Positions 47,453 to 64,000 of a stretch of 64,000 bases of DNA are shown in pieces (position 1 is the first letter of the stretch; every line of letters starts with the position of its first letter). This DNA comes from Erysipelotrichaceae bacterium. Lineage in GTDB: Bacteria > Bacillota_I > Bacilli_A > RFN20 > CAG-826. The notes below the pieces were generated by a model. That model did no database searches. It was not told the origin of the DNA and saw only the letters and a list, made by a program, of their open reading frames with translations. The DNA lies in contig SVBF01000012.1 in assembly GCA_015058945.1 (NCBI GenBank), forward strand, positions 1,763 to 65,762. Direction: 5' to 3'. A program made the translations under genes and the position numbers.

Positions 47453-48817
47453 ATGATTCGGTTTGCCCATTACCAACAAGACGATTACCAACGGGTCTGC
47501 GATTTTTTGATCCGGCTATATGAGAAGAGCGAACATCACCGTAATTGGAATTGGGCGAGGTTTGAATGGATGTATGGCCATCCCCTTACCACGGTGGAAT
47601 TCCTTGGCGATATGGGACTATGGTTCGATGGCGATAGCATCGTTGCCGCCGCGTTGATCGACATGTTCCTCGGCGAGGCTTTCATCGGTGCGTTGCCTGA
47701 GTATCAAACTCTATATCCCGAAGTGTTGAAATACGCCTTTGAACATCTAAAGGACGACCGAGGACTTGGGGTTACGATCAGCGATTTGGCTAATGAGGAA
47801 ATCAATGCCGCCTTGGCCCAAGGATTCTTCAAAACCGATGGTGAAGAAGCCGTTTATGAGATCGAACTAAGCAATGCTTTCGGCATTGTTTTGCCAGCGG
47901 GATTCATCATTGAGACATTCGATGCCCAAGAGCATGCAAAAGAGATCGAATGGCTGTTTTGGCAAGGTTTTGATCACGGCTCGAATTATGAAGAATTCCT
48001 GCAAAATAGGAGCGAAACCGTGCAAAAACGGCCTCATTTCAACAAATTTCTTTGCATTATCGCAAGAAACGAAAAAGACGAAATCGTGGCCAGTGCCTCA
48101 ACTTGGTATGACGAAAGAACCGACTATGCCTACCTCGAGCCCGTTTGCGTGATCCCCTCTTGCCGCGGCAAAGGAATCGGGAAAGCGGTGGTGCTCACCG
48201 CCTTAAACCACGCCCGTTTCCTCGGGGCGAAAAAGGCAATCGTCAATTCGGACCAAGTCTTTTATCAGCGTCTTGGTTTTAAAGAGAAGGGACGCTATCC
48301 CTTCTACTGGAAGAAGGAAGAGAAAACGGTAAACGGAGTCATCTATAAGCTGGAGAAATTATTAGGCAAGGGGAAGGGTGGCTATTCCTATCTCGCTAAA
48401 TGCGATGGGAAGGAATATGTCTTAAAGCAGATCCATCATGAGCCGTGCGAATATTATCAATTCGGTAACAAGATCGAGGCTGAGAAAAACGATTACCAAA
48501 GACTCTTGGATGCCGGCATCCGCATCCCGAAGATGATCGACGTCGATACCGAGAACGAAATCGTCCTCAAGGAATATATCGAGGGCGATGTGATTTCGGA
48601 TCTCATCGACCGAGGAGAATCGGTCGAGGCCTATATCCCTCAGGTGCGCGAGATGGCGCGCCTCGCCAAAGAAAAGGAACTCAACATCGATTATTACCCC
48701 ACGAACTTCGTGGTTCGGGACGAATTGCTCTATTACATCGATTACGAATGCAACCAATACATGGACGAATGGAGTCTGGACAATTGGGGCATCAAACATT
48801 GGTCTCCTGCGCGATAG
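47453..48817 (+). CDS. GNAT acetyltransferase fused to a protein-kinase-like domain
   Basis: VCVIPSCRGKGIGK and FYQRLGF (GNAT); LGKGKGG, VLK, DYYPTNF, YIDYE (kinase fold). Confidence 0.8.
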   Translation: MIRFAHYQQDDYQRVCDFLIRLYEKSEHHRNWNWARFEWMYGHPLTTVEFLGDMGLWFDGDSIVAAALIDMFLGEAFIGALPEYQTLYPEVLKYAFEHLKDDRGLGVTISDLANEEINAALAQGFFKTDGEEAVYEIELSNAFGIVLPAGFIIETFDAQEHAKEIEWLFWQGFDHGSNYEEFLQNRSETVQKRPHFNKFLCIIARNEKDEIVASASTWYDERTDYAYLEPVCVIPSCRGKGIGKAVVLTALNHARFLGAKKAIVNSDQVFYQRLGFKEKGRYPFYWKKEEKTVNGVIYKLEKLLGKGKGGYSYLAKCDGKEYVLKQIHHEPCEYYQFGNKIEAEKNDYQRLLDAGIRIPKMIDVDTENEIVLKEYIEGDVISDLIDRGESVEAYIPQVREMARLAKEKELNIDYYPTNFVVRDELLYYIDYECNQYMDEWSLDNWGIKHWSPAR

Positions 48818-48900: not shown

Positions 48901-49956
48901 ATGAGACGCAGCGAAAGAAACGAACTCTACAAATGCAACACCAAGGGTTTGATCGACCTCATGAACGACCCGAGGTATATGAATAACAAGAACAACCAGT
49001 TTGGCGCCGTGCTTGGCTACCTCGCCCGCCATGGGATGTCCAACGGAAACTCCAAAGGCGAATTCCTTGATTTGGTCTACGCCGCGAGGAACGAATTCAT
49101 CGCCCAAGCCGCGAAACAACATGTCGGCGCCAAGGGCGAAGTCGCCTATGACCAACTCGGCCCCGGCGATGCCAAACTCAAGGCCTTTATCCGCGATCCG
49201 CTTCCGATTTTGCAACGCGAGATGAAGGGCTTTTCCGAACGCAAAGAGAACTTCGCCGCCGACGAAGATCCGGACATCGTCGATTATTACCGTCGTCTCA
49301 AGACCAACGCGGACATTCTTTCCATCGAACTGGGATCCGATTTCGACCAGACGCGCAATCGTCCGGAAAACACCGAACTCGTGGATGTGATGAACCGCCT
49401 CAACAAAAAGATCCCTGAGAACGCGACCACTCCCGAAGAGGCGTTAAAGAAAGCCAACTCCGGCTTCTTCGGCACCTTATTCCGCCGCCAATCCAAGGAA
49501 TTCACCGCCTTTAAAACCGCCTTTGATCAGTTCCGCGACCCGACCAAAGTCCTCAATAGCGGAAACGTCGGCAATCTCGAAGAGAAGACCACGGCCTACC
49601 TCAAGCACCTCAACCCCGCATTCGAATACAAGAAAGGCATGGATAAGGAAGCGTTCCTTGCCAACCTTTCCAAGGGACAGAAGGCCCGCGCCGAGTTCGC
49701 GCTTAACGTCCTCGACTCCATCGCCGAGCATAAAGAGATGAAGCCGTACATGGAAAACGTCGATAACGCCATCAAGGGCAAACCGGTCAAAGAAATCGCC
49801 GAACCTAAGGCGGAGGTCAACGATCCGAAGATTCAAGGCCAATTCCAAAACCAAATCGCCGTCGAACTCGGCGAGGCTAAGGAGAGCAACGACATCGTCA
49901 AAGAAGAACCCGCCGAGGAAAAAGTGGCGGAAAACGGACCGGAGATGTCCAACTAA
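48901..49956 (+). CDS. Hypothetical protein, paralog family member A (acidic C-terminal tail)
   Basis: Long ORF with host-like codon usage; motifs shared with 52711-54207 and 55584-56726. Confidence 0.8.
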   Translation: MRRSERNELYKCNTKGLIDLMNDPRYMNNKNNQFGAVLGYLARHGMSNGNSKGEFLDLVYAARNEFIAQAAKQHVGAKGEVAYDQLGPGDAKLKAFIRDPLPILQREMKGFSERKENFAADEDPDIVDYYRRLKTNADILSIELGSDFDQTRNRPENTELVDVMNRLNKKIPENATTPEEALKKANSGFFGTLFRRQSKEFTAFKTAFDQFRDPTKVLNSGNVGNLEEKTTAYLKHLNPAFEYKKGMDKEAFLANLSKGQKARAEFALNVLDSIAEHKEMKPYMENVDNAIKGKPVKEIAEPKAEVNDPKIQGQFQNQIAVELGEAKESNDIVKEEPAEEKVAENGPEMSN

Positions 49957-49963
49957 GCAAACG

Positions 49964-50926
49964 ATGAACAAAAAGATAATGAAATTCGGCAAAGTGCTCG
50001 CGCCGTTACTCGCGTTATCTTTTCTTTCTTCCTGCGTTCATCGTCCCGAGACGAAGAACGTCTATATCGCTTGGAGCGACAGGCAAAACAGTTATAGCTT
50101 TATCTCCACGTTAAAGACCGTGACCTCCATCGGCTGCAACCCCGTCGTCTTGGACATGGTTCGGTCCAACGATTTGTCTTATGGCGAGGACGGAACGTTG
50201 ATCGATGCGGTCGACGAACATCGCATCCTCTTGCCCGAACCGGCAAGAAAGGTGAAGGCCAGCGCCTGGCGGCATTCTAACGTCAAAGACATCATGAAGG
50301 ACGTGAAATACGTGATCTTCCCCGGCGGCTCGGACATTTGTCCCACACTCCGAAGAACGGAAGGGGAGTGGCATGGCATCGAAGGGGATACCGATTACGC
50401 CCCGGAACGGGACGTCTCCGACTATCTGCTGATGTCCTATTGTCTCGACCACAGCATCCCCGTGTTCGCGATTTGCCGCGGCATGCAGATGTTATCCGTC
50501 GTCTCCGGCGCGACGATGATCGACGATATCCCAACTTATTTCGCTTCGTTAGGAAAAGGCGACAAGGAAACTCATCGCGACGCGGAGAAAACCGTCTTCG
50601 CCGCCCATGACGTCGACGTGACCGACGACTCCTCATTGCTTTATAAGATCACCAAGCAAACCAAACTGGAGAAAGTGCCGTCTTGGCATCACCAGGGCGT
50701 TCTTTCCGTGGAAGGCACCCCATTGTCCGTTACGGCCAAGACGACCACCGACGGCGTTTCGATCATCGAAGCGGTGGAACGGAAGGACCTCCCCTTTTGC
50801 CTCGGCGTCCAATTCCACCCCGAAGTCGCGGTGCGTAAGGCGGTGGACAAAGAAGCGGACGCCGGGAATTATATGGACCAACAAACCGCCGCATCGTTCT
50901 TCCGTGCCTTGGTCGAGCCCAAATAA
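49964..50926 (+). CDS. Peptidase C26 / gamma-glutamyl-gamma-aminobutyrate hydrolase family lipoprotein
   Basis: Lipobox LSSC, PGGSD, AICRGMQ, SWHHQG, GVQFHPE. Confidence 0.88.
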   Translation: MNKKIMKFGKVLAPLLALSFLSSCVHRPETKNVYIAWSDRQNSYSFISTLKTVTSIGCNPVVLDMVRSNDLSYGEDGTLIDAVDEHRILLPEPARKVKASAWRHSNVKDIMKDVKYVIFPGGSDICPTLRRTEGEWHGIEGDTDYAPERDVSDYLLMSYCLDHSIPVFAICRGMQMLSVVSGATMIDDIPTYFASLGKGDKETHRDAEKTVFAAHDVDVTDDSSLLYKITKQTKLEKVPSWHHQGVLSVEGTPLSVTAKTTTDGVSIIEAVERKDLPFCLGVQFHPEVAVRKAVDKEADAGNYMDQQTAASFFRALVEPK

Positions 50927-51074
50927 TCAAAACTATTTTCATATATTTAAATACGCATAAACGCACGCGTGCATAATATCGAATTCGCGAAAACCTGCGT
51001 TTACTATGAAAATTCGCGAAAATTTAGATACTTTGTATCTACATAAGATTTTTAAAGATTTTTGCAAAAAATGC

Positions 51075-51102
51075 TTGCACACTTTTTCGATGCGAGTATA
51101 GT
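51075..51102 (+). promoter_or_regulatory. Sigma-A-type promoter driving the candidate giant ncRNA
   Basis: TTGCAC-N16-TATAGT, same spacing as the tRNA and T-box promoters in this window; AT-rich upstream region. Confidence 0.75.
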
Positions 51103-51107
51103 TATGT

Positions 51108-52565
51108 GTTCCGCAGGGAACGCCAAGCCGCAAGGTAAGCGAAACTGTGGTAACCACCTTAACATAGTTAAGGTGAGGGGAATGTGTGATGCCCCTCGGG
51201 AACTTCGGTTCCTCAAAGGTCTACTGCCTCGAAAGAGACAAAGGCTGGTCCTGGACTAACCCATGGCCCGCTAAGGAATCGCTCGCCCTTCGGTAAACCG
51301 ATGAATGGAGCTGGAAAGGAAGAAAGAGGTCCTGCGATGGATCCTCGAGGACTCCTTCCCTAAGGGCTCCCGCGCAGAACGGGAACGCCACCGCCTCTCG
51401 TCCCAGGCGGCTAGTGAAACTAGAGAGAATGGGAGATGCGGACAGCCTTGGAAAAGGAACATCCGCAAGAAGGGTTAAGCGAACTTCGTCGCGTCCCTTC
51501 CCAGGATTCGCCCCCTGGCTCGTGAACGAGAAAACGCGGCGATGCCGTCAAACCTTCCTTGCGATAGGGGGGATGCTGCGGCGAAGGGTAACCCCCTGGA
51601 GGATTCCCGCCTCCCACTGGTAAACCAGAACAAACAGGGCCGACGGTGGACTTGGTTCGTCCCAAGGCAAACCGTCCAAGGCGAAGGCGCGAGCCTCCGC
51701 ACGGAACATCCCATCCTTCAGATGCGCTCTGAGAACATGGGTCCCAAGCTAACCTACTCCCGCAAGGGCATGGCCAACTTGGTCAAGGGGCTGCGGCGAA
51801 AGCCGATGTCCCCGACGGAATTCGAGCCGTCGCGTGGTAGAACCACGGCAATTCCATCGAATGGGTCGTGAGATCCGGAGAGGGCAAATCCCTCAGACCC
51901 CGCAGAAAGGCCGCGGTAAACCCGAAAATCTCTGCTCCCTCCGCTGCTATGGCCTAGTAAGCCCTCTACGCGGTACGGTAGTTCCCCGGGCATAAGCCTG
52001 CGGAACGATGGTTGTCCCGCCATTGCGTGAAACGCTGATCATGGGAATGTGAACGCGTCGGTCTTCTTCGGAAGGCAGGGGCGTCCAGAAACGCCTGGGA
52101 ATTCATAACCAGGTGGTGCCCAAAGAGGCCCGGCGCGCGGTAAACCGCTGGAAAGGCCTCTTCCCTAGGGAGTAATTCCTAGGCGAGTGAGGAGACCTTG
52201 GTCCCCTCGGGAAGTCGTTCCACCCCTCAATCGTGAAGTTGGAACGTGGCTTGGACACTTAGGCGGACGAAGATGTAACCTAAGGTTCCGGTCGAGACCG
52301 ACGGTCGTCTGTTGACGTTGCGTCGGCCTAGGAAGATAAGAGCTCTTCTCAGCGGTACACCGCAGAACCAAAAACTTGTTCCCGAATCCCTCCTGCGTTA
52401 GGGCCAGGCGGTGGTAAGGAACGAATCCCGTAAGGGATGTGGTTGGTTGGAATCTCCCACGAGGTAAACCTCAAATACGAAATGTCCCGGCGATATTGGA
52501 GCTAGACAAGCCGTTAAACCGGAAAGCCGAGTGACACCACGCAGCGATGCGTGGCGTTTTCTTTT
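51108..52565 (+). ncRNA. Candidate giant, highly structured non-coding RNA (~1.46 kb) of unknown class
   Basis: No credible ORF; bounded by a promoter and a terminator; dozens of hairpins, ten with GNRA loops, two with cUUCGg loops, five with GGTAAACC; G-U pairs fit a + strand RNA. Confidence 0.8.
52534..52565 (+). terminator. Intrinsic terminator ending the candidate ncRNA
   Basis: CCACGCA-GCGA-TGCGTGG followed by CGTTTTCTTTT. Confidence 0.8.
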
Positions 52566-52710
52566 ATACAGTAGGTTTTCGCAAGTCTCATCGGAGTGCT
52601 TAAAGACGATAAGCGGCAACATATTCGCGAAAAAGTTGCTTTAGTGTGACACATCTGTTGCGTCGGATGCCTTATGTTATTATCAGTCGAACGAAAAAGG
52701 AGGCGACATT

Positions 52711-54207
52711 ATGCCAGTTTACGAGCCCTTTACCAAAGAAGAAAAAAGAGACATCATCGCGCGTCACCATTACCTCGTCGATGAGATGAACAAGACCCTC
52801 GGCGGCGTTTTGGAATACGAGGACGAAAGAATCCTGCAGAAGCTGGAAGACCCGAAGGAGGTCGCCGCCTATCGTTTGCATGAGGAAAACAAGCTGAGAA
52901 ACGAGAAGCGTCAGAGAATCATGGACGACCTCGGTTTCCGATTTGGCACCCAGGGCATGGACCACAATCCTTTGAACCGCCACATCAAATATCTCATGAA
53001 GCTTGGCGACGATCCCAAGGACACGGAATATAACGAAAAGTTATACCAGGAATATCTCCGGAATCCCGAGAAAATCATTTACCGTGAGTATAAGAAGATT
53101 TTGGAGCTCAATCCGCAGCAGCTTTACGATCTAGGCAACGACAAGCAGAAGATCGCCGAGTTCTATATGGATAACACGGGCCTATGCGAGGGCGCGTTCG
53201 TCGTGAACTCGGTCATCACCAACAGCAACGCCAAGGCGACCAAGGCGTTACGTAACGGCCTTGCTTCGATGGCTAAGCCGATCGAATCGCTCAACGAAAT
53301 CGGCCACACGCTCAAGAACAATGGCATCGATAGCTTCGCTTGCCCGACCCTCACCCAAGAGCAGACTTTGCTCGCGATGACGAACCAGACCCTATTCTTA
53401 GGTAATCCCAACCCCGTGTTGACGGAGGTCATGAACTGCAACCTCATCCCGATCGAAACCCCGCATGACTATTTCCAAAAGTTCGTCGATTATGGCATCG
53501 ACATAAACCAGCCGAAGTTCTTCACCAAATACAAAGCGGTCAAAACCGATCCGGAGACGGGCAACAAAAGGGAAGTGGGCTTCCATGAACTCTTTGATGA
53601 CGACGACCCCAACGTCCGCATCGAAATCCGCAGCAAGGACGAGCAGGAGGAAATCCTCGCCGTCAATCGCGCCTACCAAGACAAATACGCGGAAAAGTTC
53701 CAAGCCCGCATCGCCACGAAGCTCAACCAGATGAACTTCGACATCAACCAGCTCGAGGAAGAGCGTAAGGGTAGTTGGGTGGAACGTAATGTTCTCCATT
53801 CCACGTCCCGCGAATGGACGGAATTCATCGGCGCCTTCAAGGACTATAACAACCCCGAGCATCCCAATTACCTCCGCAAGGACATCCTTAAGCCCAAAGC
53901 CCAGGCCTACATGAACCGTAAACACCGCCAAGGCTATGCGACGGTGGAGGACATGAAGGGCACTTCGCGTAGCCGTGGTACATTGGCTCAGGCCGTCATC
54001 GATACCTGCGATGAGTTCGAGGAGCAAAAGAACCAGATCACCGAGGACATCGAGATCGCGATCAATACCGGGTTCAATGGCAAGGTCGGGCTTATCATCA
54101 ACGCCAAAGAAGTCGACGACAACGACAACGTGGCGGAACCGGAGGAAGAGAAATCCAACGAGATCAAAAACGAAATCGTTAAAGATCAAGGGTCGCTCGA
54201 GATGTAG
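52711..54207 (+). CDS. Hypothetical protein, paralog family member B (acidic C-terminal tail)
   Basis: AAGGAGG RBS, extended -10 upstream, terminator downstream; shares the C-terminal motif with A and C. Confidence 0.85.
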   Translation: MPVYEPFTKEEKRDIIARHHYLVDEMNKTLGGVLEYEDERILQKLEDPKEVAAYRLHEENKLRNEKRQRIMDDLGFRFGTQGMDHNPLNRHIKYLMKLGDDPKDTEYNEKLYQEYLRNPEKIIYREYKKILELNPQQLYDLGNDKQKIAEFYMDNTGLCEGAFVVNSVITNSNAKATKALRNGLASMAKPIESLNEIGHTLKNNGIDSFACPTLTQEQTLLAMTNQTLFLGNPNPVLTEVMNCNLIPIETPHDYFQKFVDYGIDINQPKFFTKYKAVKTDPETGNKREVGFHELFDDDDPNVRIEIRSKDEQEEILAVNRAYQDKYAEKFQARIATKLNQMNFDINQLEEERKGSWVERNVLHSTSREWTEFIGAFKDYNNPEHPNYLRKDILKPKAQAYMNRKHRQGYATVEDMKGTSRSRGTLAQAVIDTCDEFEEQKNQITEDIEIAINTGFNGKVGLIINAKEVDDNDNVAEPEEEKSNEIKNEIVKDQGSLEM

Positions 54208-54223
54208 CAAATACCAAAGATAG

Positions 54224-54258
54224 AGGCGGGCGCGTCCAAAGGCGCATCCGCCTTTTCT
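54224..54258 (+). terminator. Intrinsic terminator
   Basis: AGGCGGGCGCGTC-CAAA-GGCGCATCCGCCT followed by TTTCT. Confidence 0.7.
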
Positions 54259-54421
54259 CATGCCATCGTTTTTGGAAAATAAGCGGGATTTGCGGGACAT
54301 TTTGCATCCCAAAACCCGCAAAAAGCGCTTTTTTGTGGCTCGCAATAAGATTGCGAATCGCGCGATGAAAGGGGTTTCTTGTCGATTTACTCGCCATGAT
54401 GGGTAAATTATACGTAGTATC

Positions 54422-55507
54422 ATGAATCCCGTTCTTGAGTACTTTATCCAAAACTGGGCGCTGGTCTTAATCCTCCTCGCCTTCGCGATCATGTTGTGGG
54501 TCACGATCTTCCTCGACCGGAAAACCGTGAGGCGCATGTACATCCTGATCGTTTTCCTTTTCCTGCTTTCCATCTGCGTCTACACCGAGTTCCGCCTCGC
54601 GGAGACCAAGCATTATCCGGAATTGCGTTTGGCGATGATGGCCATACGTTATAGCGCCACTCCAGTTATCGTCGCCTTCATCATCTTCACGCTGGTGAAG
54701 CGGGCTCGTTGGTATGTGTTTTTGCCAGTAGTCGCCCTCACGGTGCTTAACGTGATCTCCATTTGGACCGGTATCGTCTTCGGGCTCGACGCAAATGGCG
54801 AACTCGTTCGCGGCGCCCTCGGCTATTTCCCTTATATCGCCGTGGGCATTTATAGTTTCTTCCTCGTCTTCATCCTTATCCGCCAAAGCAACAAGCAGGC
54901 CGTGGAAATCGTCCCCATCGCCTTCTTGGCCTTCACCTTCGCCTCGGGCTTGGTCTTCCCCTTCGTGATGGGAAAGGAATACTCCAAGATCTTCTGCTCG
55001 ACCATCGCCGTCGGCCTATTCGTCTATTACGTCTTCTCGATCCTGCAGCTCACCACGAAGGATGCCTTGACCGGTTTGCTGAACCGTCAAGCTTACTACT
55101 CCTTCGTCCGCAAGAACTCCAAGGACATCACTGCGATCGTCTCCATTGACATGAACGGCCTCAAGACCATCAACGACAACCAGGGCCACCTCGCCGGGGA
55201 TGAGGCGCTTACGACTTTGGCCTTATGCTTCACCAAAGCCACGAAGAACAAACAGTACGTCTACCGCATTGGCGGCGACGAATTCGTCATCGTTTGCAAA
55301 AAGACCAGCAAAGCGGATTTGAAGCTCATGATCAAATCCATCAAAGAAAACGTCGCCGAGACGGAATACTCCTGCTCCATCGGCTATTCGTTCGCCTTTA
55401 ATGGCGAAAAGACGCCGGAAGAAATGGCCAAGGAATCGGACGCGATGATGTACGCCCATAAGGCCAAGTTCTATTCCGAAAGCAGCAATAATCGCCGCCT
55501 TCAGTAA
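54422..55507 (+). CDS. Membrane-bound diguanylate cyclase (GGDEF)
   Basis: About 7 TM segments, DALTGLLNR, D.NGLK.IND..GH..GD, YRIGGDEF. Confidence 0.92.
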   Translation: MNPVLEYFIQNWALVLILLAFAIMLWVTIFLDRKTVRRMYILIVFLFLLSICVYTEFRLAETKHYPELRLAMMAIRYSATPVIVAFIIFTLVKRARWYVFLPVVALTVLNVISIWTGIVFGLDANGELVRGALGYFPYIAVGIYSFFLVFILIRQSNKQAVEIVPIAFLAFTFASGLVFPFVMGKEYSKIFCSTIAVGLFVYYVFSILQLTTKDALTGLLNRQAYYSFVRKNSKDITAIVSIDMNGLKTINDNQGHLAGDEALTTLALCFTKATKNKQYVYRIGGDEFVIVCKKTSKADLKLMIKSIKENVAETEYSCSIGYSFAFNGEKTPEEMAKESDAMMYAHKAKFYSESSNNRRLQ

Positions 55508-55583
55508 AAAGTTTCTTCTTGTGACAGTTTTGTTGCATGCGTCCGCGTAAGATATTTTCGTAACCTCAGAAAAAGGCAAAACC

Positions 55584-56726
55584 ATGCCGAAGCTCACAAA
55601 AGAAGAACTTCAACGCGTCCGCTATGTCTCCATGGCGGATTTCGCGCGCCGCTTCGACCAGATTCAGGACTTTGACGACAAGATGTCCTTCGCGACGCGT
55701 TACTTGCTTTGCCATGGCATGAAGGGCGCCGAGAACGACTATAGCTTTCCCGAGGCGCTCCATATCGCCCGCACGAAGATCGCCGACGCCTCTGCCAGGA
55801 TGAAGGAGCAGTTCTTCGCGCAATCGGACGAGGATTTGACCAAACGCCCCCATATTGTGAACCCTTGGCTTAAGGACGAAAGGGCCGACCTTGCGGCCGA
55901 AGCCTTCATGGGCAATCCGACGGGCTATGTCCAAGGCGCCGCCAAGGAGCTCGCCCAAGAAATGGGCAGCAGCTCCGGTTTTAACATTGACCTAAAGGCG
56001 AACTGCGAACGCATCTCCCATTTGCCCGAGGAGCAGACGAACCGCGCCGTTTTCGCCCTCGACGCCACGCCGACGGCCTTCGACGTCAAGATGCGCTTGG
56101 AAACCAAGCTCGGCGGTAGGGCGGAACTAGAAAGCTTATACCAAACCGCGAAGCCAGGTCTTTTCTCCAGAATCCTCGGCGCCTCTTCCCCCGCCTCGCA
56201 CAAACTCGACGCCGCCTATAAGGCGTTCCAAAACCCGAGGGACCGTGCCTTTGGGGACATGAACGCCATGGAGAAGGCATCCAATGATTATTTGGGCTAT
56301 AAAATCCCTACTTGGAAACCTGGGCAAAAGATGCCAAACGACGTCATGGGTGTCCTTAATCCCGCCGAGAAGGCCAGGGCCAAGCTCTCCGTCTACATGC
56401 TCGAATCCATCGAAGAGCAACGCGCGATGGAAGACGACTTCCGCACGATGGTGAAAGCCTGTAGCGCGAAGAGCCTTTCCTATGATGACGTTATCGCCTC
56501 TAGGGTGACCCTGCGCGAAACGTCACAGGAAGAGCCGCATGTCGAAGACGCCGTCAAAGAAGAAACCAGAATCAAATCGCCTCGCGGGCTCGATCAGGCC
56601 TCCTTCCAATCCTTTTTGGAATATGACGCCCAAGACGAGACTTTGATGGAGAGTAGGGGAGAGGCAACCGAAGAGGAGCCGTCCATCGATGAACCTGCGA
56701 TTGACGAAGCCGCGGTGGTGCAATAA
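55584..56726 (+). CDS. Hypothetical protein, paralog family member C (acidic C-terminal tail)
   Basis: Full-length motif similarity to 48901-49956. Confidence 0.82.
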   Translation: MPKLTKEELQRVRYVSMADFARRFDQIQDFDDKMSFATRYLLCHGMKGAENDYSFPEALHIARTKIADASARMKEQFFAQSDEDLTKRPHIVNPWLKDERADLAAEAFMGNPTGYVQGAAKELAQEMGSSSGFNIDLKANCERISHLPEEQTNRAVFALDATPTAFDVKMRLETKLGGRAELESLYQTAKPGLFSRILGASSPASHKLDAAYKAFQNPRDRAFGDMNAMEKASNDYLGYKIPTWKPGQKMPNDVMGVLNPAEKARAKLSVYMLESIEEQRAMEDDFRTMVKACSAKSLSYDDVIASRVTLRETSQEEPHVEDAVKEETRIKSPRGLDQASFQSFLEYDAQDETLMESRGEATEEEPSIDEPAIDEAAVVQ

Positions 56727-56731
56727 GGTGA

Positions 56732-57493
56732 ATGGCAATGACCATACTTCTCGTCGACGATGAAAAACTACAGCTGCACCGCTTGCAAGACGCGGTGGCC
56801 AAAGTACTCCCCGAGAGTGAGGTTTTGTCATTTGGCAACCCCCTAGAGGCGTTAAAGGAAACCGAGGACCTCAAGATTGACCTCGCCTTCCTCGACATTG
56901 AGATGCCGGGGATGAACGGAATCCAAGTCGCGCGGAAACTGAAACTGCGTGACCCGCGGACCCGCATCGTCTTCGTCACCGCCTATGACCATTACGCGAT
57001 GGAGGCGTTCCGCGTCCACGCCTCCGGCTATATCACCAAACCCGTCAGTGAGGGAAAGATCCGCGAGGAGATGGAACAGGTCACGCCGTCGTTCCTTCCC
57101 TCCTCAAAAAAGCTGCAGGTGAAGTGCTTTGGGAACTTTGAGGTTTTCCATGACGGCGTCCCCCTGAAATTCAAGCGCAGCAAATCGAAGGAACTTTTCG
57201 CCTACCTCATCGACCGTGAGGGGTCGGCCGCGACGGCGAGCGAACTTAACGCGATCCTTTGGAACGAGGACCATCCTTCCTACCTCCGCAACCTCGTCAG
57301 CGACATCCAACAGACGCTTAAGGCGGTCGGCTGCGCGGATGTGTTCGTCAAGCGTCACAACGAATGCTACATCGACGTCTCCAAGATCGATTGCGACGCC
57401 TACGAATTCAAGAAAAACAACCCGGACGCGATACGGATGTACCGGGGACAATACATGTTCCAATACTCGTGGGCGATGTTCGTGGATGAGTAG
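56732..57493 (+). CDS. Response regulator (REC plus SARP-type winged-helix output)
   Basis: LVDDE, FLDIEMPGMNG, FVTAY, YITKP; VKCFGNFEV, KSKELFAYL. Confidence 0.9.
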   Translation: MAMTILLVDDEKLQLHRLQDAVAKVLPESEVLSFGNPLEALKETEDLKIDLAFLDIEMPGMNGIQVARKLKLRDPRTRIVFVTAYDHYAMEAFRVHASGYITKPVSEGKIREEMEQVTPSFLPSSKKLQVKCFGNFEVFHDGVPLKFKRSKSKELFAYLIDREGSAATASELNAILWNEDHPSYLRNLVSDIQQTLKAVGCADVFVKRHNECYIDVSKIDCDAYEFKKNNPDAIRMYRGQYMFQYSWAMFVDE

Positions 57494-57794
57494 CAAACGC
57501 CTGCGGATTAAGTAAGGACTTTACAATTGTAATCCCCATTAGGCAAATTATGGAAACCGCCGTGTTCAAAAAGGCGGGTTTTCCTTAATATGGCTTTCCT
57601 ATTATTTTTTAAATAATATTTTAGGGATTTTCGCTTGGTTTCGCGGTGAGTCGAAAGTGAAAAAAGCCGTTTTAGTCCAAGGCGTTCGACCCTCCTGAAT
57701 TAACCCTTGTTGCACATTTGTGGCATTTTTAAATATAGACTTCAGTCAGATATGCTGGAGAAGACTCTTCTCCCATACCGCCGCCCTAAACGAC

Positions 57795-59387
57795 ATGAAG
57801 AACAAGACAGCCATCACAATCCTCGCCGCCTTAGCCATCTCCTCGATGCCTTTTATGGCTGCGTGCAGCGGTTCGACTACCATCGTCGGGATTCATATGA
57901 CCAACCCTGAGACGATGACCGTCTGCTATGGCAATTTCTCCTATGAGGGAATCGGCGTCACCGTCGATTTCCGCGACGGAGGTTCGACCGAGATCCCCCT
58001 TACCGAGGACATGGTCCCGGAAGTGGAACGGCTGAAGTTTTTCAAAATCGGCGAGCAGAACATCGAGATCGTCTATCGCGGCAAGTTCACGACCACCATG
58101 CCCGTGAACGTCACGTTAAATCAATTTAAGGATTCGTACGCGCTAGTCGGGTATGAGTGCGTGTATGACGGCTCGCCCCATGCCGTCGGATTAAACCAAG
58201 AACTACCCGAAGGCGCGGTCATCACTTATCCCTATGGCAACATCTTCACCAACGCGGGCGTCTATGAAGTCGTCGGCGTCATGAGCAAGAACGGCTATGA
58301 GTCGAAGACCCTCACGACGACGCTCACCATCCTACCCGCCGAGCGTGACGCCTCAGGCATCGTCTTTGAGGACACCACGGTGGTCTATAACGGCGAAATG
58401 CGCTCCATCGAGGCGACCAACGTCCCCGAGGGCGTGGAAGTCACTTATGACGCCTACGACTATGAACAAGCCATTCGCATCAACAAAGTCGTCAACGCCG
58501 GCAAGTATCGCATCGTCGCCCATTTCAACGACACCAGCACCAACTACACAAAGATTCCCGATAAGGAAGCCGTCCTAACCATCGAGAAAGCCGATTATGA
58601 CGTCTCGGACATCAAGCTTCCCGACGCGATCAAGGAATACGATGGCCAGGATTACGTCGCCCAGATCACCAACAAAGGTCGTCTCCCCACCGGCGTAAGC
58701 GTCAATTACACCTATTACGATGAGCAGGGGAACAAGGTCAACAGCAACGCCAAAGTCGGCAATTACACCATCGTCGCCTCCTTCGTGGGCGGCGACCTCG
58801 CCAACTACAACCCCATCGAACCGCTCACGGCGACGCTTTCCGTCTCAAAGCGCGTCATCAAGATCAAAGACAAAGTCACCTTTGAGGGCAAAACGGTCAA
58901 CTTCGACGAGAACGTGACCCATTCTTTGGCCATCGCCGGGACGCTCCCCGACACCGTGAAAGTCACCTATGAAAACAACGACCAGGTCTATGCCGGCGAA
59001 TACGAGGTGAAGGCTAAGTTCTCCGCCGTCAGCGAAAACGAGAAGGTGGACCTCGAGGAGCTGACCGCCTATTTGATCATCAACCGCGTGCGCCGCTCGG
59101 TCCCGATGTATAACGAGACCACCAAGGCCTACGACCGTCCTTTCGCCGCAAGCGACATCAAGATCAAAGACGGCGTCGTCACCATCGAAGGCTATCAGAC
59201 CGACATCTTCAAGCTGACTTCGGTCGTCTTCTCCGACTTGCTGACCAACGAAACCGTCGCCCCCGAAAACCTCGTCAGCGGCACCACCTACAAATACATC
59301 GTCACCTTTGAATATATCGACGAGTCGGTTGGGAGCAGTGTGATTTTGTCCCAGGAATCGGACAACATCACCTATGTGGCGGAGTGA
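57795..59387 (+). CDS. Surface lipoprotein with repeated MBG-like Ig domains
   Basis: Lipobox MAAC; repeated YDG...LP.GV.V.Y...NAG.Y.V.A.F units. Confidence 0.8.
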   Translation: MKNKTAITILAALAISSMPFMAACSGSTTIVGIHMTNPETMTVCYGNFSYEGIGVTVDFRDGGSTEIPLTEDMVPEVERLKFFKIGEQNIEIVYRGKFTTTMPVNVTLNQFKDSYALVGYECVYDGSPHAVGLNQELPEGAVITYPYGNIFTNAGVYEVVGVMSKNGYESKTLTTTLTILPAERDASGIVFEDTTVVYNGEMRSIEATNVPEGVEVTYDAYDYEQAIRINKVVNAGKYRIVAHFNDTSTNYTKIPDKEAVLTIEKADYDVSDIKLPDAIKEYDGQDYVAQITNKGRLPTGVSVNYTYYDEQGNKVNSNAKVGNYTIVASFVGGDLANYNPIEPLTATLSVSKRVIKIKDKVTFEGKTVNFDENVTHSLAIAGTLPDTVKVTYENNDQVYAGEYEVKAKFSAVSENEKVDLEELTAYLIINRVRRSVPMYNETTKAYDRPFAASDIKIKDGVVTIEGYQTDIFKLTSVVFSDLLTNETVAPENLVSGTTYKYIVTFEYIDESVGSSVILSQESDNITYVAE

Positions 59388-59391
59388 GAAG

Positions 59392-61764
59392 ATGAAGAAG
59401 CGCTACATCGCATACATCACTTACGGCGTCTCCTTAGCCTTAGCCGCCGCCTTAATGTTGGTGCTCTTCTTTTTGGGCGTCTTTCATCATTACACCGACA
59501 CGCTCGACGTCGGCAACATGATTGCCTTCCTGATCTTCTTCTTCGTGACTTTCTCCCTCGTCGCGACGGTCCTTTTCTCCGCCCGTTTCATTAGCGGCGT
59601 CGTGCAGGAAACCCTCTTCATCGTGGCCTCGCTCCTCCTCATCAGCGAGATTTTGTCCTTTCTCCTGTTCGCGCTCATCGACTGCGGTTTCGAATTCGCG
59701 CTCATCGACTGGCTCGGCGCCCTAGGACGCATGCCCGTCGGCTGGCAATACTATTTGACGTTGCTCTTCATCTTCGTCGGCCTTTTCGCGATTTACGCCG
59801 CCTTCATCAACAAGAACTTCATCGCCACTATCCTCGGCAAAGGTACGGGCGAGCTCAAACGCGTCAAAGGTTCCAACCTCGAGAATTCGCGCTGGTTGAC
59901 CGACCGCGAGAAGAAAACCCTCTTCAAGTTCTATTCCTATAGCCAACTCGGCGAGGTGACCAAAGACGGCATCCCCGTCCACGCCCAACTCGACCGCAAG
60001 GGCAAAGACATGGAGGTCGGCTTCAATGCGCCGTGCCACTCCATCGTCATCGGTTCCACCGGCTCTGGTAAGACAACGACCTTCGTCTCGCCGATGATCC
60101 AGCTCCTCGGCGCCACCAAGGCTGGGTCCTCGATGGTCATCACCGACCCCAAAGGCGAGCTTTTCCAGCTCCATTCCAAATACCTGAGGGAGCGGGGATA
60201 CGACGTGAAGGTCATCGACTTACGCGACACCTATTCCTCCTACCGCTGGAACCCCCTCGACGGCATTTGGGACAACTTCGAACTCTATCGCAACGCCCAT
60301 AAAATGGCCTTCAAGCGCGACGACGACATCATGCAGGCGGGCCTTAAGGTCGACAAAGAGGACGAGAACCTCCCCGTCGGCACGGAATGGTACGAATTCC
60401 AGGGCAAGGCCTACACCGATTACAAGCGCCTCATCAACGCGGTCAAGATCTTCAAGAAGCGCACCTATGACGAAATCTATGAGGACCTCAACGACTTGGT
60501 CACCGTCTTGATCCCGGTCGAGAACGAGAAGGATCCCCTATGGGAAAAGGGCGCCCGCTCCATCACCTTGGCGGTCCTTTTGGCCATGCTCGAGGACGCC
60601 GAGGAAGAAGGCAGCACGATGTCCAAAGCCAAGTTCAACTTCTTCAACTTGGCCAAGATCCTCCAAAACTCCAACGACGACTACAAGCAACTCCGCGAAT
60701 ACTTCAAGGGCAGGAGTTCCCTCTCTCGCGCCTATTCCTTATCCAAACAGGTCTGCGACGCCGCCCAGTCGACCCGCGCCTCCTACATGTCCATCGTCTA
60801 CGACAAACTCACTTTGTTCAACGACGCCGGCATCTGCGCCCTCACGAGTTCCTCCGACTTCACCGCCAAGTCGCTTTCGGACCATCCGACCGCCCTCTTC
60901 CTCAAGATCCCCGACGAGAAAGACACGCGCCATAACCTCGCGGCCATCTTCATCTTGAACATCTACAAGACCTTGATTAAGGTCGCCTCCGCGACGCCGG
61001 ACCTCACCTTGCCGCGCAACGTCTACTTCATCATGGACGAGTTCGGCAACATGCCCAAGATCAGCAAGTTCGACAAATTCATCACCGTCGGCCGTTCGCG
61101 CAAGATCTGGTTCACCATGATCGTTCAGTCCTACGCTCAGCTCAATAATGTCTACGGCGACACCGTCGCGGACATCATCAAGGGCAACTGCGGCATCAAG
61201 ATGTTCATCGGTTCCAACGACATGTCGACCTGCAAAGAATACAGCGAGCTTTGCGGCAACATCACCATCGCGAGCACCTCGACCTCCGGCAGCGCCCATA
61301 GCGAGACCAACTTCTCGACCTCCTACCAGGTCCGCCCGTTGATCTACCCGTCCGAGCTGCAGCGTCTCAACCATCCCGGCGACATCGGCCATGGCATCGT
61401 CGTCACGTTCGGCAACTATCCGCTTAAGACATACTTCACCCCCTCGTTCAAGGTACCTCTTTACGTCACGGGCGAGATGGATCAGTCCGACATCGCCGAG
61501 CGCGGCTTCAACGAGCGCGCGGTCTTCTATGACATCCGCGAACGCAATAGGCGCCTCGAGAAGAAAACCGCCGAGGCGGCGGCCGAAAAGGAAAAGCAAA
61601 CCGAGAAGAAGCAGAAGCAGAGCGAGCTCTCCTCCCTCACCCAGGCGGAGATCCTCTCCCTGTTCATGGAATACCAGAAGAGCAACCCCGGTCTCACCCT
61701 CAAGGACTTCATCAGCATGATCGAAGACGGCAAGATCGAGCTCGGAAAGGACCCGAAACAATGA
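59392..61764 (+). CDS. VirD4/TraG-like type IV coupling protein
   Basis: N-terminal TM segments, GSTGSGKT, TDPKGEL, WNPL, FIMDEFGNM, GRSR, QSYAQL..VYG. Confidence 0.88.
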   Translation: MKKRYIAYITYGVSLALAAALMLVLFFLGVFHHYTDTLDVGNMIAFLIFFFVTFSLVATVLFSARFISGVVQETLFIVASLLLISEILSFLLFALIDCGFEFALIDWLGALGRMPVGWQYYLTLLFIFVGLFAIYAAFINKNFIATILGKGTGELKRVKGSNLENSRWLTDREKKTLFKFYSYSQLGEVTKDGIPVHAQLDRKGKDMEVGFNAPCHSIVIGSTGSGKTTTFVSPMIQLLGATKAGSSMVITDPKGELFQLHSKYLRERGYDVKVIDLRDTYSSYRWNPLDGIWDNFELYRNAHKMAFKRDDDIMQAGLKVDKEDENLPVGTEWYEFQGKAYTDYKRLINAVKIFKKRTYDEIYEDLNDLVTVLIPVENEKDPLWEKGARSITLAVLLAMLEDAEEEGSTMSKAKFNFFNLAKILQNSNDDYKQLREYFKGRSSLSRAYSLSKQVCDAAQSTRASYMSIVYDKLTLFNDAGICALTSSSDFTAKSLSDHPTALFLKIPDEKDTRHNLAAIFILNIYKTLIKVASATPDLTLPRNVYFIMDEFGNMPKISKFDKFITVGRSRKIWFTMIVQSYAQLNNVYGDTVADIIKGNCGIKMFIGSNDMSTCKEYSELCGNITIASTSTSGSAHSETNFSTSYQVRPLIYPSELQRLNHPGDIGHGIVVTFGNYPLKTYFTPSFKVPLYVTGEMDQSDIAERGFNERAVFYDIRERNRRLEKKTAEAAAEKEKQTEKKQKQSELSSLTQAEILSLFMEYQKSNPGLTLKDFISMIEDGKIELGKDPKQ

Positions 61765-64000
61765 GAGCGAAGTGGAGAAGACGCGGCTTGACGTTCCTCA
61801 CGGCCCTGATGGCTGGCTTTATGATGAGCCAGGGGCTCCCGGAACTCGCCTCCGACCTCAGTGAGATCGTCGTGTTCGCCGATAGCGGCACCAACGTCGT
61901 CCGTTTTGGTTCGACTCAGGTCGAGTGCAACGATTCCAACCTCGTCTACGTCGACCTTTTGGCCACCGGCACCCCGGGCAACACCGTCACCGCCACCTAT
62001 CGCACCAGCAGCGGCACCGCCATCGAGAACGTCGACTATGCGGGCGTCTATAACACCATCTCGCTTAGACTCGGCACCGACGGCAAAGCCAAATACACCA
62101 TTTCCATCAAGGGCCTTAACGACGCCTCCGGCCGCGAGAAACTCCGCGTCTATGACTCCGAAGGCGTCTATGGCCGTTATTTCAACCTGCACCTCCTCGC
62201 GGCGGAAAATGCCTCCATCGGCGACGAGAAGCAGTGCAAGTGCTATTTGTCCTACAACTACAAAGTCTCCGCCACGACCCACGTCATGGATGGCCTTTTG
62301 GGACGTGAGGTCGCTTACCTTAACGACTACAAGAACATGATTTCCAAATACCACAAAGGCGACAACGACATCAGTGGTCAGGAATCGTGGAGGACTTGGA
62401 AGGAAGGCGTCTCCTTCGATAACGAGACCACCAGGCACTGGGTCAATACCTACATCAACAACGGTTTCGCCGAAGCCTATGGCACCTATATCCTCAAGAA
62501 CATCGACGACGATCACGTCCATTCCGAAAACAACATCTACATGATCTCCGGCAACAAGGAGCTCATGCAGAAGTACGAGAAAAAGAAATACATCTCCGGC
62601 GCCTCGCTCTATTATGAGATCGAGCCGTGCAGAAGTGGCGGTTACCGCCTCGACGGCCGCGCGATGTACTACATCTCCCAAAACAAGAACCCGTGGAAGC
62701 AAGACAGCGATCTCGTCGACTTGGAAGAAATGCACCATCGCGGTCCGAACCAGCGCGTCTATTGGATTCAGGAGAGCGATGCGTGGTACTCCAGGAAAAA
62801 CACGGTTTACGACACCGTCTTCTGGAAGACCGATCCCTATAACGGCGTCTTGGATTACGGCCTATGCATTTTCAACAACAACGGTTCGTGGGACCGCGAA
62901 GTCCATGACATCTGGCTCTTCCTCACCCTCCTCGACAAGAAGGCCCCATCGATCGTCAACCAGTGGTCCGAATTCAACCCGCAGACCAACTCGGTCCGCA
63001 TCTACCTGCGCTTCGACGAGCCCGTTTATAGCTCCAAGAAGAACGACCTTTTGGTCCGCATCAACAACAAGTCGACCAACTATTACGCGACCTACGTCGA
63101 GGGCAACTACGGCGACACCCTCGTTTACGAGCTTCCCGAATCCGCGACGCGCAACAAGAAGATCAATTCGATCAAATACGAGCTCCCGACCGAAGACATC
63201 GGCGACCTCGCCTATAACCTCGATGGCTACAAAATCGTCCGCAACAACCTCGTCAAAGGCACAGATGTGGAGCGCGACACCGTCATCTCCGGCGGCTACA
63301 TCGACCTCGCCATCCCGCAGCTCGCCGTCGACCAGGGTTCCTCCACAACTCCCCATGGCGTCTACAACGTCATGATCTCGGCCAACGGCAACGGCTCGTC
63401 CACCTTCGACACCGGCACCGTCTACTATTCCTGGGACAAGAACGAGAGCATCCAAAACCCGCTCGAACCCTCTTCTTACGCCAACACGCACGTGCTGACT
63501 TCCGAGGAGGCCGGTTCCTTTGGCGTCACCTTGATGAAGAACGAGAGCCTCGGCATCGATAGCGGGGATTATTACCTCCATGCCCTCGCCGTTTCCAGAT
63601 ACGGTCTGACCGCCCATGATACCTACGGACCATACCGCTTAGATGGCGATGCACCGGAAATCAGCCAAATCTCGCCTTCCGTCGACAACCTCCAATCCAA
63701 AGGCTTCCGCCTGCAGATCAAGGATAAGGCGCTCGGCACGGCGATGAAGTACGTCGCCATGAACGTGAAGTACGTCGACGAGGAAGGCAAAGAACAAGTC
63801 GGAAGCATCACCCTCGCGAATAACGGGGTGATCGAGCCCACTCTCGCGGGCATCGTCTCCTCCAGCTATGACGGTGGCCTCACGACCTACATCTATCGTT
63901 CCAACATCGACGAGACCGACACGAGCATCCCGCTAGATAACTTCACGCTCGGCCTCATGGGGTCGCGTCCCCAGCTCGCGGTGGAAGTGTGGTTCGAAGT
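61761..64000 (+). CDS. Large secreted/surface protein with an N-terminal Calx-beta-like domain (runs off the window edge)
   Basis: ATG overlaps the VirD4 stop (ATGA); manual translation MRAKWRRRGLTFLTALMAGFMM...VTATYRTSSGTAIENVDY stays open to the window end; missing from the ORF track because it is truncated. Confidence 0.82.
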   Translation, partial: MRAKWRRRGLTFLTALMAGFMMSQGLPELASDLSEIVVFADSGTNVVRFGSTQVECNDSNLVYVDLLATGTPGNTVTATYRTSSGTAIENVDYAGVYNTISLRLGTDGKAKYTISIKGLNDASGREKLRVYDSEGVYGRYFNLHLLAAENASIGDEKQCKCYLSYNYKVSATTHVMDGLLGREVAYLNDYKNMISKYHKGDNDISGQESWRTWKEGVSFDNETTRHWVNTYINNGFAEAYGTYILKNIDDDHVHSENNIYMISGNKELMQKYEKKKYISGASLYYEIEPCRSGGYRLDGRAMYYISQNKNPWKQDSDLVDLEEMHHRGPNQRVYWIQESDAWYSRKNTVYDTVFWKTDPYNGVLDYGLCIFNNNGSWDREVHDIWLFLTLLDKKAPSIVNQWSEFNPQTNSVRIYLRFDEPVYSSKKNDLLVRINNKSTNYYATYVEGNYGDTLVYELPESATRNKKINSIKYELPTEDIGDLAYNLDGYKIVRNNLVKGTDVERDTVISGGYIDLAIPQLAVDQGSSTTPHGVYNVMISANGNGSSTFDTGTVYYSWDKNESIQNPLEPSSYANTHVLTSEEAGSFGVTLMKNESLGIDSGDYYLHALAVSRYGLTAHDTYGPYRLDGDAPEISQISPSVDNLQSKGFRLQIKDKALGTAMKYVAMNVKYVDEEGKEQVGSITLANNGVIEPTLAGIVSSSYDGGLTTYIYRSNIDETDTSIPLDNFTLGLMGSRPQLAVEVWFE

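Follow-up and report, generated by a model that had tools for sequence, protein, structure and literature searches.

What do three related proteins of no known family do at a locus where their genes surround a giant structured RNA and stand ahead of genes for a type IV secretion system (T4SS)? The locus lies in a stretch of 64,000 nucleotides (nt) from an Erysipelotrichaceae bacterium, here called the window (G000:C10:1763-65762, from a genome, G000, of 1.46 Mb on 20 contigs, 92% complete). An initial annotation, made from the letters of the window, had described the three proteins, A, B and C, as a lineage-specific helical family expanded at this locus, and had proposed that they are either protein partners of the RNA or substrates exported by the nearby VirD4-like protein. 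Our analysis suggests that the family is functionally tied to a T4SS resembling that of Mycoplasma integrative and conjugative elements (ICEs) in a small clade of rumen Bacilli/Erysipelotrichaceae-like bacteria, and that its members are substrates (effectors) of this system, a proposal whose chances we judge to be about even.

A family of helical proteins with a common C-terminal module

The open reading frames (ORFs) of the three proteins are present where the initial annotation had placed them, all on the + strand. They are listed here with the kind of evidence behind each (HMM, hidden Markov model; AF2, AlphaFold2).

48901..49956, + strand: A, family member of 351 amino acids (aa), A-type subfamily, soluble, all-alpha, with an acidic tail (ORF and leave-out HMM)
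52711..54207, + strand: B, long-form family member of 498 aa, B-type, with the module at residues ~320-453 and a disordered tail at 455-498 (ORF, HMM and AF2 model)
55584..56726, + strand: C, core-type family member of 380 aa, with residues 1-315 folded and an acidic disordered tail at 316-380 (ORF and AF2 model)

The start of A is most likely ATG 48901 rather than GTG 48859, because the first residues of A-like relatives match there. The pairwise similarity on which the kinship had first been based is barely significant when taken alone: BLASTP gave an E value of 0.002 for A and C (21% identity, 228 columns), 0.027 for A and B, and 0.96 for B and C. The homology was upheld by leave-out HMMs, which were run against 6412 ORFs and drew on further members of the same genome, D to I. 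An HMM built from C, D, E and F only retrieved A at 8.8e-17 and G at 1.2e-9, and an HMM of B and G retrieved D at 1.7e-6, E at 2.2e-6 and C at 8.7e-4, so that B is tied to the family via its relative G. Therefore, the homology of A, B and C is real, and on the evidence of these profiles they are true, distant paralogues.

The AF2 model of C, computed from a 19-row alignment, reached a predicted local distance difference test score (pLDDT) of 80.5 and a predicted template-modelling score (pTM) of 0.76, and has 17 helices spanning residues 1-315 and a disordered tail beyond them. For B, the model (24 rows; pLDDT 78.7, pTM 0.70) is helical with one small sheet and disordered at residues 455-498. 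A helical bundle is predicted at residues 160-283 of C and 320-453 of B. Common to the members are a C-terminal module of ~150 residues, a QxxFQxxLxxD motif and an acidic disordered tail, whereas the N-terminal parts ahead of the module vary from 200 to 700 residues and give six size classes of 350-860 aa. In an alignment of 115 sequences (C numbering), the best-conserved positions lie in the C-terminal module, namely K190 (84%), G192, F193, F194, F198, S202 (99%), Y236 (99%), H239, P242 (93%) and R265 (89%), which bears out the C-terminal block that had been noticed in B and the others. The loop of the module follows the pattern K190-x-G-F-F-x-x-x-F-x-T-x-S202, also written K-x-G-F-F-x-R-x-F-G-x-x-S, and the conserved motif of the tail reads Q338-x-x-F-Q-x-x-L-x-x-D348 in C.

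The hydropathy scan found no signal peptide or transmembrane segment in the nine own members, in agreement with the initial annotation: the maximal 19-residue Kyte-Doolittle mean was at most 1.15 in all nine, compared with 1.45 for a lipoprotein and 2.95 for a membrane protein used as controls. The acidic tails of A, B and C were also seen correctly from the start, since the net charge of the last 60 residues is -6 to -20 in each of the nine; in all 21 listed foreign members the tails are acidic as well (-3 to -17). The folded parts are neutral to acidic, with isoelectric points (pI) of 4.9-8.4. All family members of this genome are soluble and all-alpha, and the idea of a lineage-restricted helical family is supported.

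The claim that the family had expanded at this locus was not borne out. The nine members of the genome are spread over four contigs: A, B and C on C10, D and E in tandem on C5, F, H and I on C9, and G, a B-like protein of 553 aa, on C13. H (855 aa) and I (552 aa) match the family in the C-terminal module only. For each of the nine paralogues, the closest foreign relative is 43-93% identical and the closest own paralogue 23-34% (54% and 24%, respectively, for A). Since the foreign orthologues are closer than the own paralogues, there was no local expansion, and by these identities A, B and C belong to three old subfamilies.

A word-indexed search returned 11 relatives of C and 20 of B, all without a name; the orthologues of C are 77-88% identical, and the 20 homologues of B 51-93%. 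An exhaustive profile search of 1.84 billion proteins found 361 cluster representatives at E<=0.001 and 114 at E<=1e-30, and no known domains were found in the 20 longer members scanned. Those records of relatives that do have a name are rumen and gut metagenome-assembled genomes (MAGs) labelled Bacilli, Bacillales or Erysipelotrichaceae. Tandem family genes also occur elsewhere, with three at locus L060, two at L061 and a cluster at L059.

Searches of Pfam, NCBIfam, PHROGs and PADLOC named no family for the members; in particular, Pfam-A gave no family for A to I at E up to 0.01 or 0.001, and none of the NCBIfam ICE families matched any member. A weak match of P0087 to XPD_arch (2.7e-4, below the cut-off) was disregarded. 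The family profile had no match among PDB sequences at E up to 10. No usable feature match came from ESM Atlas, whose structure rows had template-modelling (TM) scores of at most 0.27 by query. Foldseek found nothing at E up to 0.001 for the C model against PDB and BFVD or for the B model against PDB. The wide VIA-align search reached a best Z of 6.4 for C and 5.9 for B, over the C-terminal bundle only and at a level common for helical bundles. Nothing on the family appeared among the matches listed by literature searches on T4SS, Erysipelotrichales, effectors and rumen. The family is thus previously undescribed and uncharacterised.

A type IV secretion locus linked to the family

Downstream of B, the window holds the following genes, two of which belong to signalling and three to the secretion locus and the surface protein after it.

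54422..55507, + strand: membrane GGDEF protein, a kept neighbour in the block B-type / GGDEF / core-type (Pfam GGDEF, 2.1e-24)
56732..57493, + strand: response regulator, beginning 5 nt past the stop codon of C (Pfam Response_reg, 2.2e-23)
57720..59387, + strand: MBG-domain surface lipoprotein of the secretion locus (Pfam MBG_3, 9.8e-10)
59374..61764, + strand: VirD4 coupling protein, CD1115 family (Pfam T4SS-DNA_transf, 7.2e-55; NCBIfam conju_CD1115, 304.7 bits, cut-off 250)
61761..64000, + strand: first part of a surface protein of 2488 aa whose gene continues up to the contig end (ORF and locus order)

The remaining channel genes lie on contig C13 in the order pilin-like gene (Mbov_0395 family), lipoprotein, VirB6-like membrane protein (Mbov_0396/MMCAP2_0566), VirB4_plasma, G and a TetR-like gene. 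C10 and C13 are almost certainly adjacent in the genome, because the same gene order, from the giant surface protein through the pilin to VirB4, runs unbroken on single contigs in G233, G289 and G264. The NCBIfam scores exceeded their cut-offs for NF045849 (51.2 bits, cut-off 40), NF045848 (137.1, cut-off 90), NF045889 (107.3, cut-off 70) and NF045973 (304.7, cut-off 250). For VirB4_plasma the cut-off is 590 bits; G289 exceeded it with 599.5, whereas the two pieces in G000 stayed below it with 371.8 and 167.5.

Family genes follow VirB4 directly and in the same orientation in five genomes of three genera: one gene in G000, at least one in G016, two in G264 (511 and 506 aa), three in G233 (563, 858 and 498 aa) and five in G289 (493, 570, 547, 504 and 856 aa), with one unrelated gene, TetR-like or lipoprotein, interspersed in some of the arrays. 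B-like members are found in the arrays of G233, G289 and G264. In addition, the order core-type member / MBG lipoprotein / VirD4 recurs in G000 and G009 (L056).

The co-occurrence of the family with VirB4_plasma (NF045975, E up to 1e-20) was examined in an even sample of the order comprising 401 genomes from 70 genera. The family occurred in 7 genomes and VirB4 in 43; all seven family genomes carried VirB4, and the family was present in 0 of the 358 VirB4-negative genomes (Fisher's test, 1e-7, with related genomes not being independent). The two coincided genome by genome in three genera, g1 (2/36), g38 (3/4) and g44 (1/2). In a sample of 24 genomes of the own genus, the set with multiple family copies (G005, G006, G009, G016 and G017) was the same as the set with a VirB4 orthologue of 82-85% identity, and the VirB4 of the family-linked system is conserved at 75-85% across three genera. 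Four inspected genomes with VirB4 and without the family carried distant ICE-like systems (26-37% identity), in which the genes after VirB4 are of kinds typical of ICEs, namely recombinase, ParA and methylase; three HMMs found no family match in these four at E up to 1.

Several other observations concern this locus and the surroundings of family genes elsewhere. The block B-type / GGDEF / core-type recurs in G233:C1 with a GGDEF protein 60% identical, and a GGDEF gene adjoins a C-like member in L055. C and the response regulator are probably co-transcribed. A TetR-like gene of ~178 aa (52-57% identity) lies within the post-VirB4 arrays of three genera and is a candidate regulator of the locus. 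Its copies are as follows.

G000:C13:6952-7485: TetR-like gene
L098 4344-4886: TetR-like gene
L099 10119-10655: TetR-like gene
L100 11762-12295: TetR-like gene

Upstream of A, the ORF at 47453-48817 encodes a GNAT acetyltransferase domain fused to a Bud32-like small kinase domain at the C-terminus, and every match to kinases fell below its cut-off. At L059 4978-7899 / L097 (G264:C23), an IS200/IS605 element (TnpA and TnpB) cuts a core-type member into N- and C-terminal ORFs. The C9 region with F, H and I (L020, G000:C9:158001-178000) is variable and contains an MmeI-type restriction-modification enzyme, two ATPase_2 genes and a Phd antitoxin adjoining a ParE-GNAT fusion. A protein of 760-784 aa with weak PI3_PI4_kinase / Fam20C-like matches, all below the cut-offs, is encoded at L020 5753-8035 (G000:C9:163753-166035) and at L051 16565-18919 (G005); it adjoins F in G000 and the giant RNA in G005, and may be another effector-like gene.

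Possible roles as secretion substrates, helpers or signalling proteins

We favour the reading of the family members as secretion substrates because the family occurs only where VirB4 occurs, and because its genes follow VirB4 and a member precedes the MBG lipoprotein and VirD4. The same reading is suggested by the presence of one conserved C-terminal module on varied N-terminal parts, by acidic tails throughout with no signal peptide or transmembrane segment, and, as in effector repertoires, by the existence of nine conserved paralogues in each genome that all have orthologues of their own. Finally, there are precedents in BID with its tail and in XVIPCD, as far as these are described in PMC6509941 and PMC8740702.

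In such a system, the activities would reside in the helical N-terminal parts, which vary, and the C-terminal part would act as the recognition and translocation signal for the VirD4 coupling protein. The signal would consist of the predicted four-helix bundle of ~120 residues with its K-x-G-F-F-x-R-x-F-G-x-x-S loop, the short QxxFQxxLxxD helix and the acidic disordered tail; the bundle could possibly also be a membrane-targeting element. As to the earlier suggestion of export by the VirD4-like protein, both the co-occurrence and the synteny of the operon speak for a link to the VirD4 machine, while VirD4 binding, translocation and the nature of the target cell are what we infer. A more specific scenario seems to us possible, if doubtful. 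It holds that a T4SS of the Mycoplasma-ICE type was domesticated in small-genome rumen Bacilli as a protein-injection system with at least nine effectors per genome and a new bipartite C-terminal signal, the bundle of which may also serve for membrane targeting in the recipient, a bacterium or a rumen eukaryote.

T4SS effector families and C-terminal signal domains, such as BID, XVIPCD and the Dot/Icm signals, are well known in Proteobacteria, whereas the T4SSs of Gram-positive bacteria and of the Mollicutes type have been treated almost only as DNA-conjugation machines. BID is described in PMC6509941 as a C-terminal helical-bundle domain of ~100 residues with a charged tail, placed on the differing N-terminal parts of Bartonella Beps, relaxases and toxins, and BID paralogue genes adjoin T4SS genes according to the same account. 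The family resembles BID in having a predicted four-helix bundle (C ~160-283) and a charged tail common to its members, and in the linkage of its genes to a VirB/VirD4-type locus (arrays after VirB4 in five genomes and a member before VirD4 in two). Unlike BID, the family has no Pfam match at E up to 0.01, its tail is acidic where that of BID is positively charged, and its host belongs to a Gram-positive-type lineage with a Mycoplasma-ICE-like T4SS; BID chains were absent among the best 50 fold matches listed for the C and B models. XVIPCD, found in the Xanthomonas antibacterial effectors X-Tfe, is in the description of PMC8740702 a C-terminal domain of ~120 residues with motifs and a variable low-complexity tail, which marks a scattered multi-gene effector family and is bound by the all-alpha domain of VirD4. 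The family shares with it a conserved C-terminal module with motifs and a tail on a scattered multi-gene family. However, the XVIPCD fold is alpha-alpha-beta-beta-beta with a Gln-rich tail, whereas the family module is predicted to be all-alpha and its tail is acidic. Thus, the family belongs to neither BID nor XVIPCD, and by analogy it may work like them. Neither toxin domains nor cognate immunity genes were recognised for the family.

The recurring fold neighbours of the C and B modules were four-helix membrane-localisation domains (TcdA, TcdB, TcnA, MARTX RID and RRSP, BteA, SidC P4C), which bind anionic membranes through a basic-hydrophobic loop. The C model matched 5xn7_B, 5uqk_A, 2vk9_A, 8qen_A and 6rgn_A at Z 4.8-5.5, and the B model matched 5uqk_A (Z 5.8), 5w6l_A (Z 5.7) and 4zuz_B (Z 5.7) as well as 4r04_A, 5xn7_B, 8qen_A and 2vk9_A. 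Taken together, the superpositions on toxin domains had Z 4.8-5.8 and a root-mean-square deviation of 2.9-5.1 Å over 75-90 residues, which is below the noise level for helical bundles, and there was no sequence match to the toxin domains. This resemblance between models is a lead, not a classification.

The channel module of the Mycoplasma ICE (MICE), as presented in PMC6030558, served as the comparison for the machine beside the family. The two have in common the Mbov_0395 pilin-like protein, the Mbov_0396/MMCAP2_0566 membrane protein, VirB4_plasma, a surface lipoprotein and VirD4. Unlike MICE, the locus showed no DDE recombinase, relaxase or integrase in the flanks inspected on C10 and C13 (Pfam scan of these flanks), and unlike the distant ICE-like relatives it has family arrays after VirB4 instead of the recombinase, ParA and methylase genes.

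A number of points weigh against the members being secreted substrates. We know of no established protein-translocating T4SS with an effector family in Bacillota. The family is missing from 36 of the 43 VirB4-positive genomes, and its co-occurrence with the T4SS could come from shared ancestry. In a SecA tree (27 rows, quick IQ-TREE search; G017, G021 and G022 left out, G013 on an aberrant long branch), the family genomes stood in at least three places and 4 changes were needed. This count deserves limited weight, since it comes from a single gene and since G016 and G006 are large fragmented MAGs. The VirB4 gene of G000 itself is split into parts of 729 and 159 aa (L022, G000:C13, 2491-5144), as compared with an intact protein of 885-893 aa in five relatives; the split reflects either a frameshift or an assembly error. 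Furthermore, several members are encoded far away from the T4SS, next to genes for signalling proteins (hybrid kinase, GGDEF, PP2C/STAS), and the SpoIIE-type neighbour gene is similarly patchy, being missing from 4 of 5 family-less genomes.

The same position in the operon after VirB4 and the same co-occurrence would also be expected if the members were cytoplasmic parts or helpers of the T4SS that are not translocated, such as adaptors or chaperones of VirD4, DNA-processing accessory factors or regulators. The TetR-like regulator embedded in the arrays fits this explanation, as does the need of MICE transfer for CDS1, CDSA, CDSC and CDS30, which appear in the account of PMC6030558 as proteins without known function. 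Nevertheless, adaptors or structural parts do not usually come as nine divergent paralogues per genome whose N-terminal parts differ widely (350-860 aa in total length), many copies lie far from T4SS genes, and no NCBIfam ICE family matches any member. We therefore regard a helper function as unlikely, though it is the strongest competitor of the substrate reading.

The neighbourhoods of the family genes could instead point to an intracellular role independent of the T4SS, for example as peripheral-membrane or signalling scaffolds acting with GGDEF, histidine-kinase and PP2C proteins, in which case the T4SS link would reflect a shared history in the accessory genome. GGDEF neighbours are present in the window, L055, L062, L095 and L096, a hybrid kinase in the window and in L059, and SpoIIE/STAS on C5 and in L061; the response regulator immediately after C and the patchy SpoIIE neighbour point the same way. 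However, the presence and absence of the family coincide with VirB4 in three genera, members are inserted within the T4SS operon, and some of the neighbour recurrences represent one orthologous block rather than independent events. Such a role is improbable in our estimation.

The giant RNA beside A and B

Between A and B lies the RNA around which the three proteins had first been noticed. The RNA and the motifs near it are as follows.

51100..52565, + strand: giant structured non-coding RNA, ~1.45 kb, a neighbour of the family and not part of it (covariation, copies)
50982-50993 and 51011-51022, + strand: two copies of AATTCGCGAAAA upstream of the RNA promoter (motif search)
52622-52633, + strand: third copy, TATTCGCGAAAA, upstream of B (motif search)

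Rfam contained no family at or above the gathering score for this RNA, the sole sub-threshold match being sn2524 (31.4 bits vs 44). Two further full-length copies exist in G000 (C16:9988-11477 and C7:30724-32213; 71% identical), the three copies of the 1.46-Mb genome being 69-74% identical to one another, and ten copies from seven genomes show 55-77% identity. RNAalifold on 8 copies predicted 409 pairs, 198 of them with double-sided covariation. Canonical cells made up 92.2% in the RNA pairs, as compared with 36-44% when the 3' partners were slid, and the consensus energy was -858, as compared with -385 to -425 for five column shuffles. A terminator is found at 52537-52554, and a putative promoter, TTGCAC-17-TATAGT, was read by eye near 51078-51106. 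Given the covariation, the energy and the terminator, the RNA is real.

Of the 5 occurrences of the 11-mer ATTCGCGAAAA in the 1.46-Mb genome, 3 lie around the RNA and B, within the palindrome-containing motif (A/T)ATTCGCGAAAA. A 27-nt direct repeat (50983-51009 / 52623-52649, 74% identical) stands on both sides of the RNA gene. The (A/T)ATTCGCGAAAA motif may be an operator or the footprint of the arrival of the RNA gene. The shorter TTCGCGAA was considered as an operator common to all members and rejected, since the genome contains it 75 times and the longer motif is confined to the surroundings of the RNA and B.

The RNA was found in 8 of the 25 genomes of the genus sample (own genome included) and in 0 of 16 genomes of other genera. 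The 7 positive genomes among the other 24 are the five with multiple family copies, G002 (76% complete, with one family fragment) and G021. This distribution bears on the proposal that the RNA forms a ribonucleoprotein with A, B and C as its protein partners. The proposal draws on the position of A, B and C around the RNA in the window, where B begins 145 nt past the terminator, on the AATTCGCGAAAA motif upstream of the RNA and of B alike, and on the presence of the RNA in all 6 multi-copy family genomes of the genus. The link thus holds at the genome level within the genus, and neither by locus nor outside the genus. Of the three own RNA copies, those on C16 and C7 have no family member within 10 kb, and only that of the window does; among the seven foreign RNA loci (flanks limited by contig ends), one has a member, 6 kb away in G005, and none of the nine foreign family loci holds the RNA (BLAST, E up to 1e-5). 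G233, G264, G289 and G325, from two other genera and 89-94% complete, have the family and the T4SS and no RNA by BLAST or by a covariance model of the best-conserved 347-nt RNA core (positive control G005, E 3e-123), and G021 has the RNA without the family. In G233, the block B-type / GGDEF / core-type has 157 nt and no RNA at the corresponding place. The folded parts of the proteins, at the pI values given above, are not basic, and their tails are strongly acidic. An obligate RNA-protein partnership is largely refuted by these results, and a ribonucleoprotein of the RNA with the family proteins appears very improbable.

With A, B and C removed as candidate partners, the search for the function of the RNA narrows. 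As for the proteins, an unannotated family of 361 clusters occurs only where one conserved T4SS subtype occurs and forms arrays inside its operon. It thus provides a testable candidate for protein secretion by such a T4SS in abundant uncultured rumen bacteria, with a module defined for reporter fusions. If the scenario of a domesticated protein-injection system is correct, the members would represent the first effector family, and their C-terminal signal the first secretion signal, defined for a T4SS of the Bacillota/Mollicutes type.

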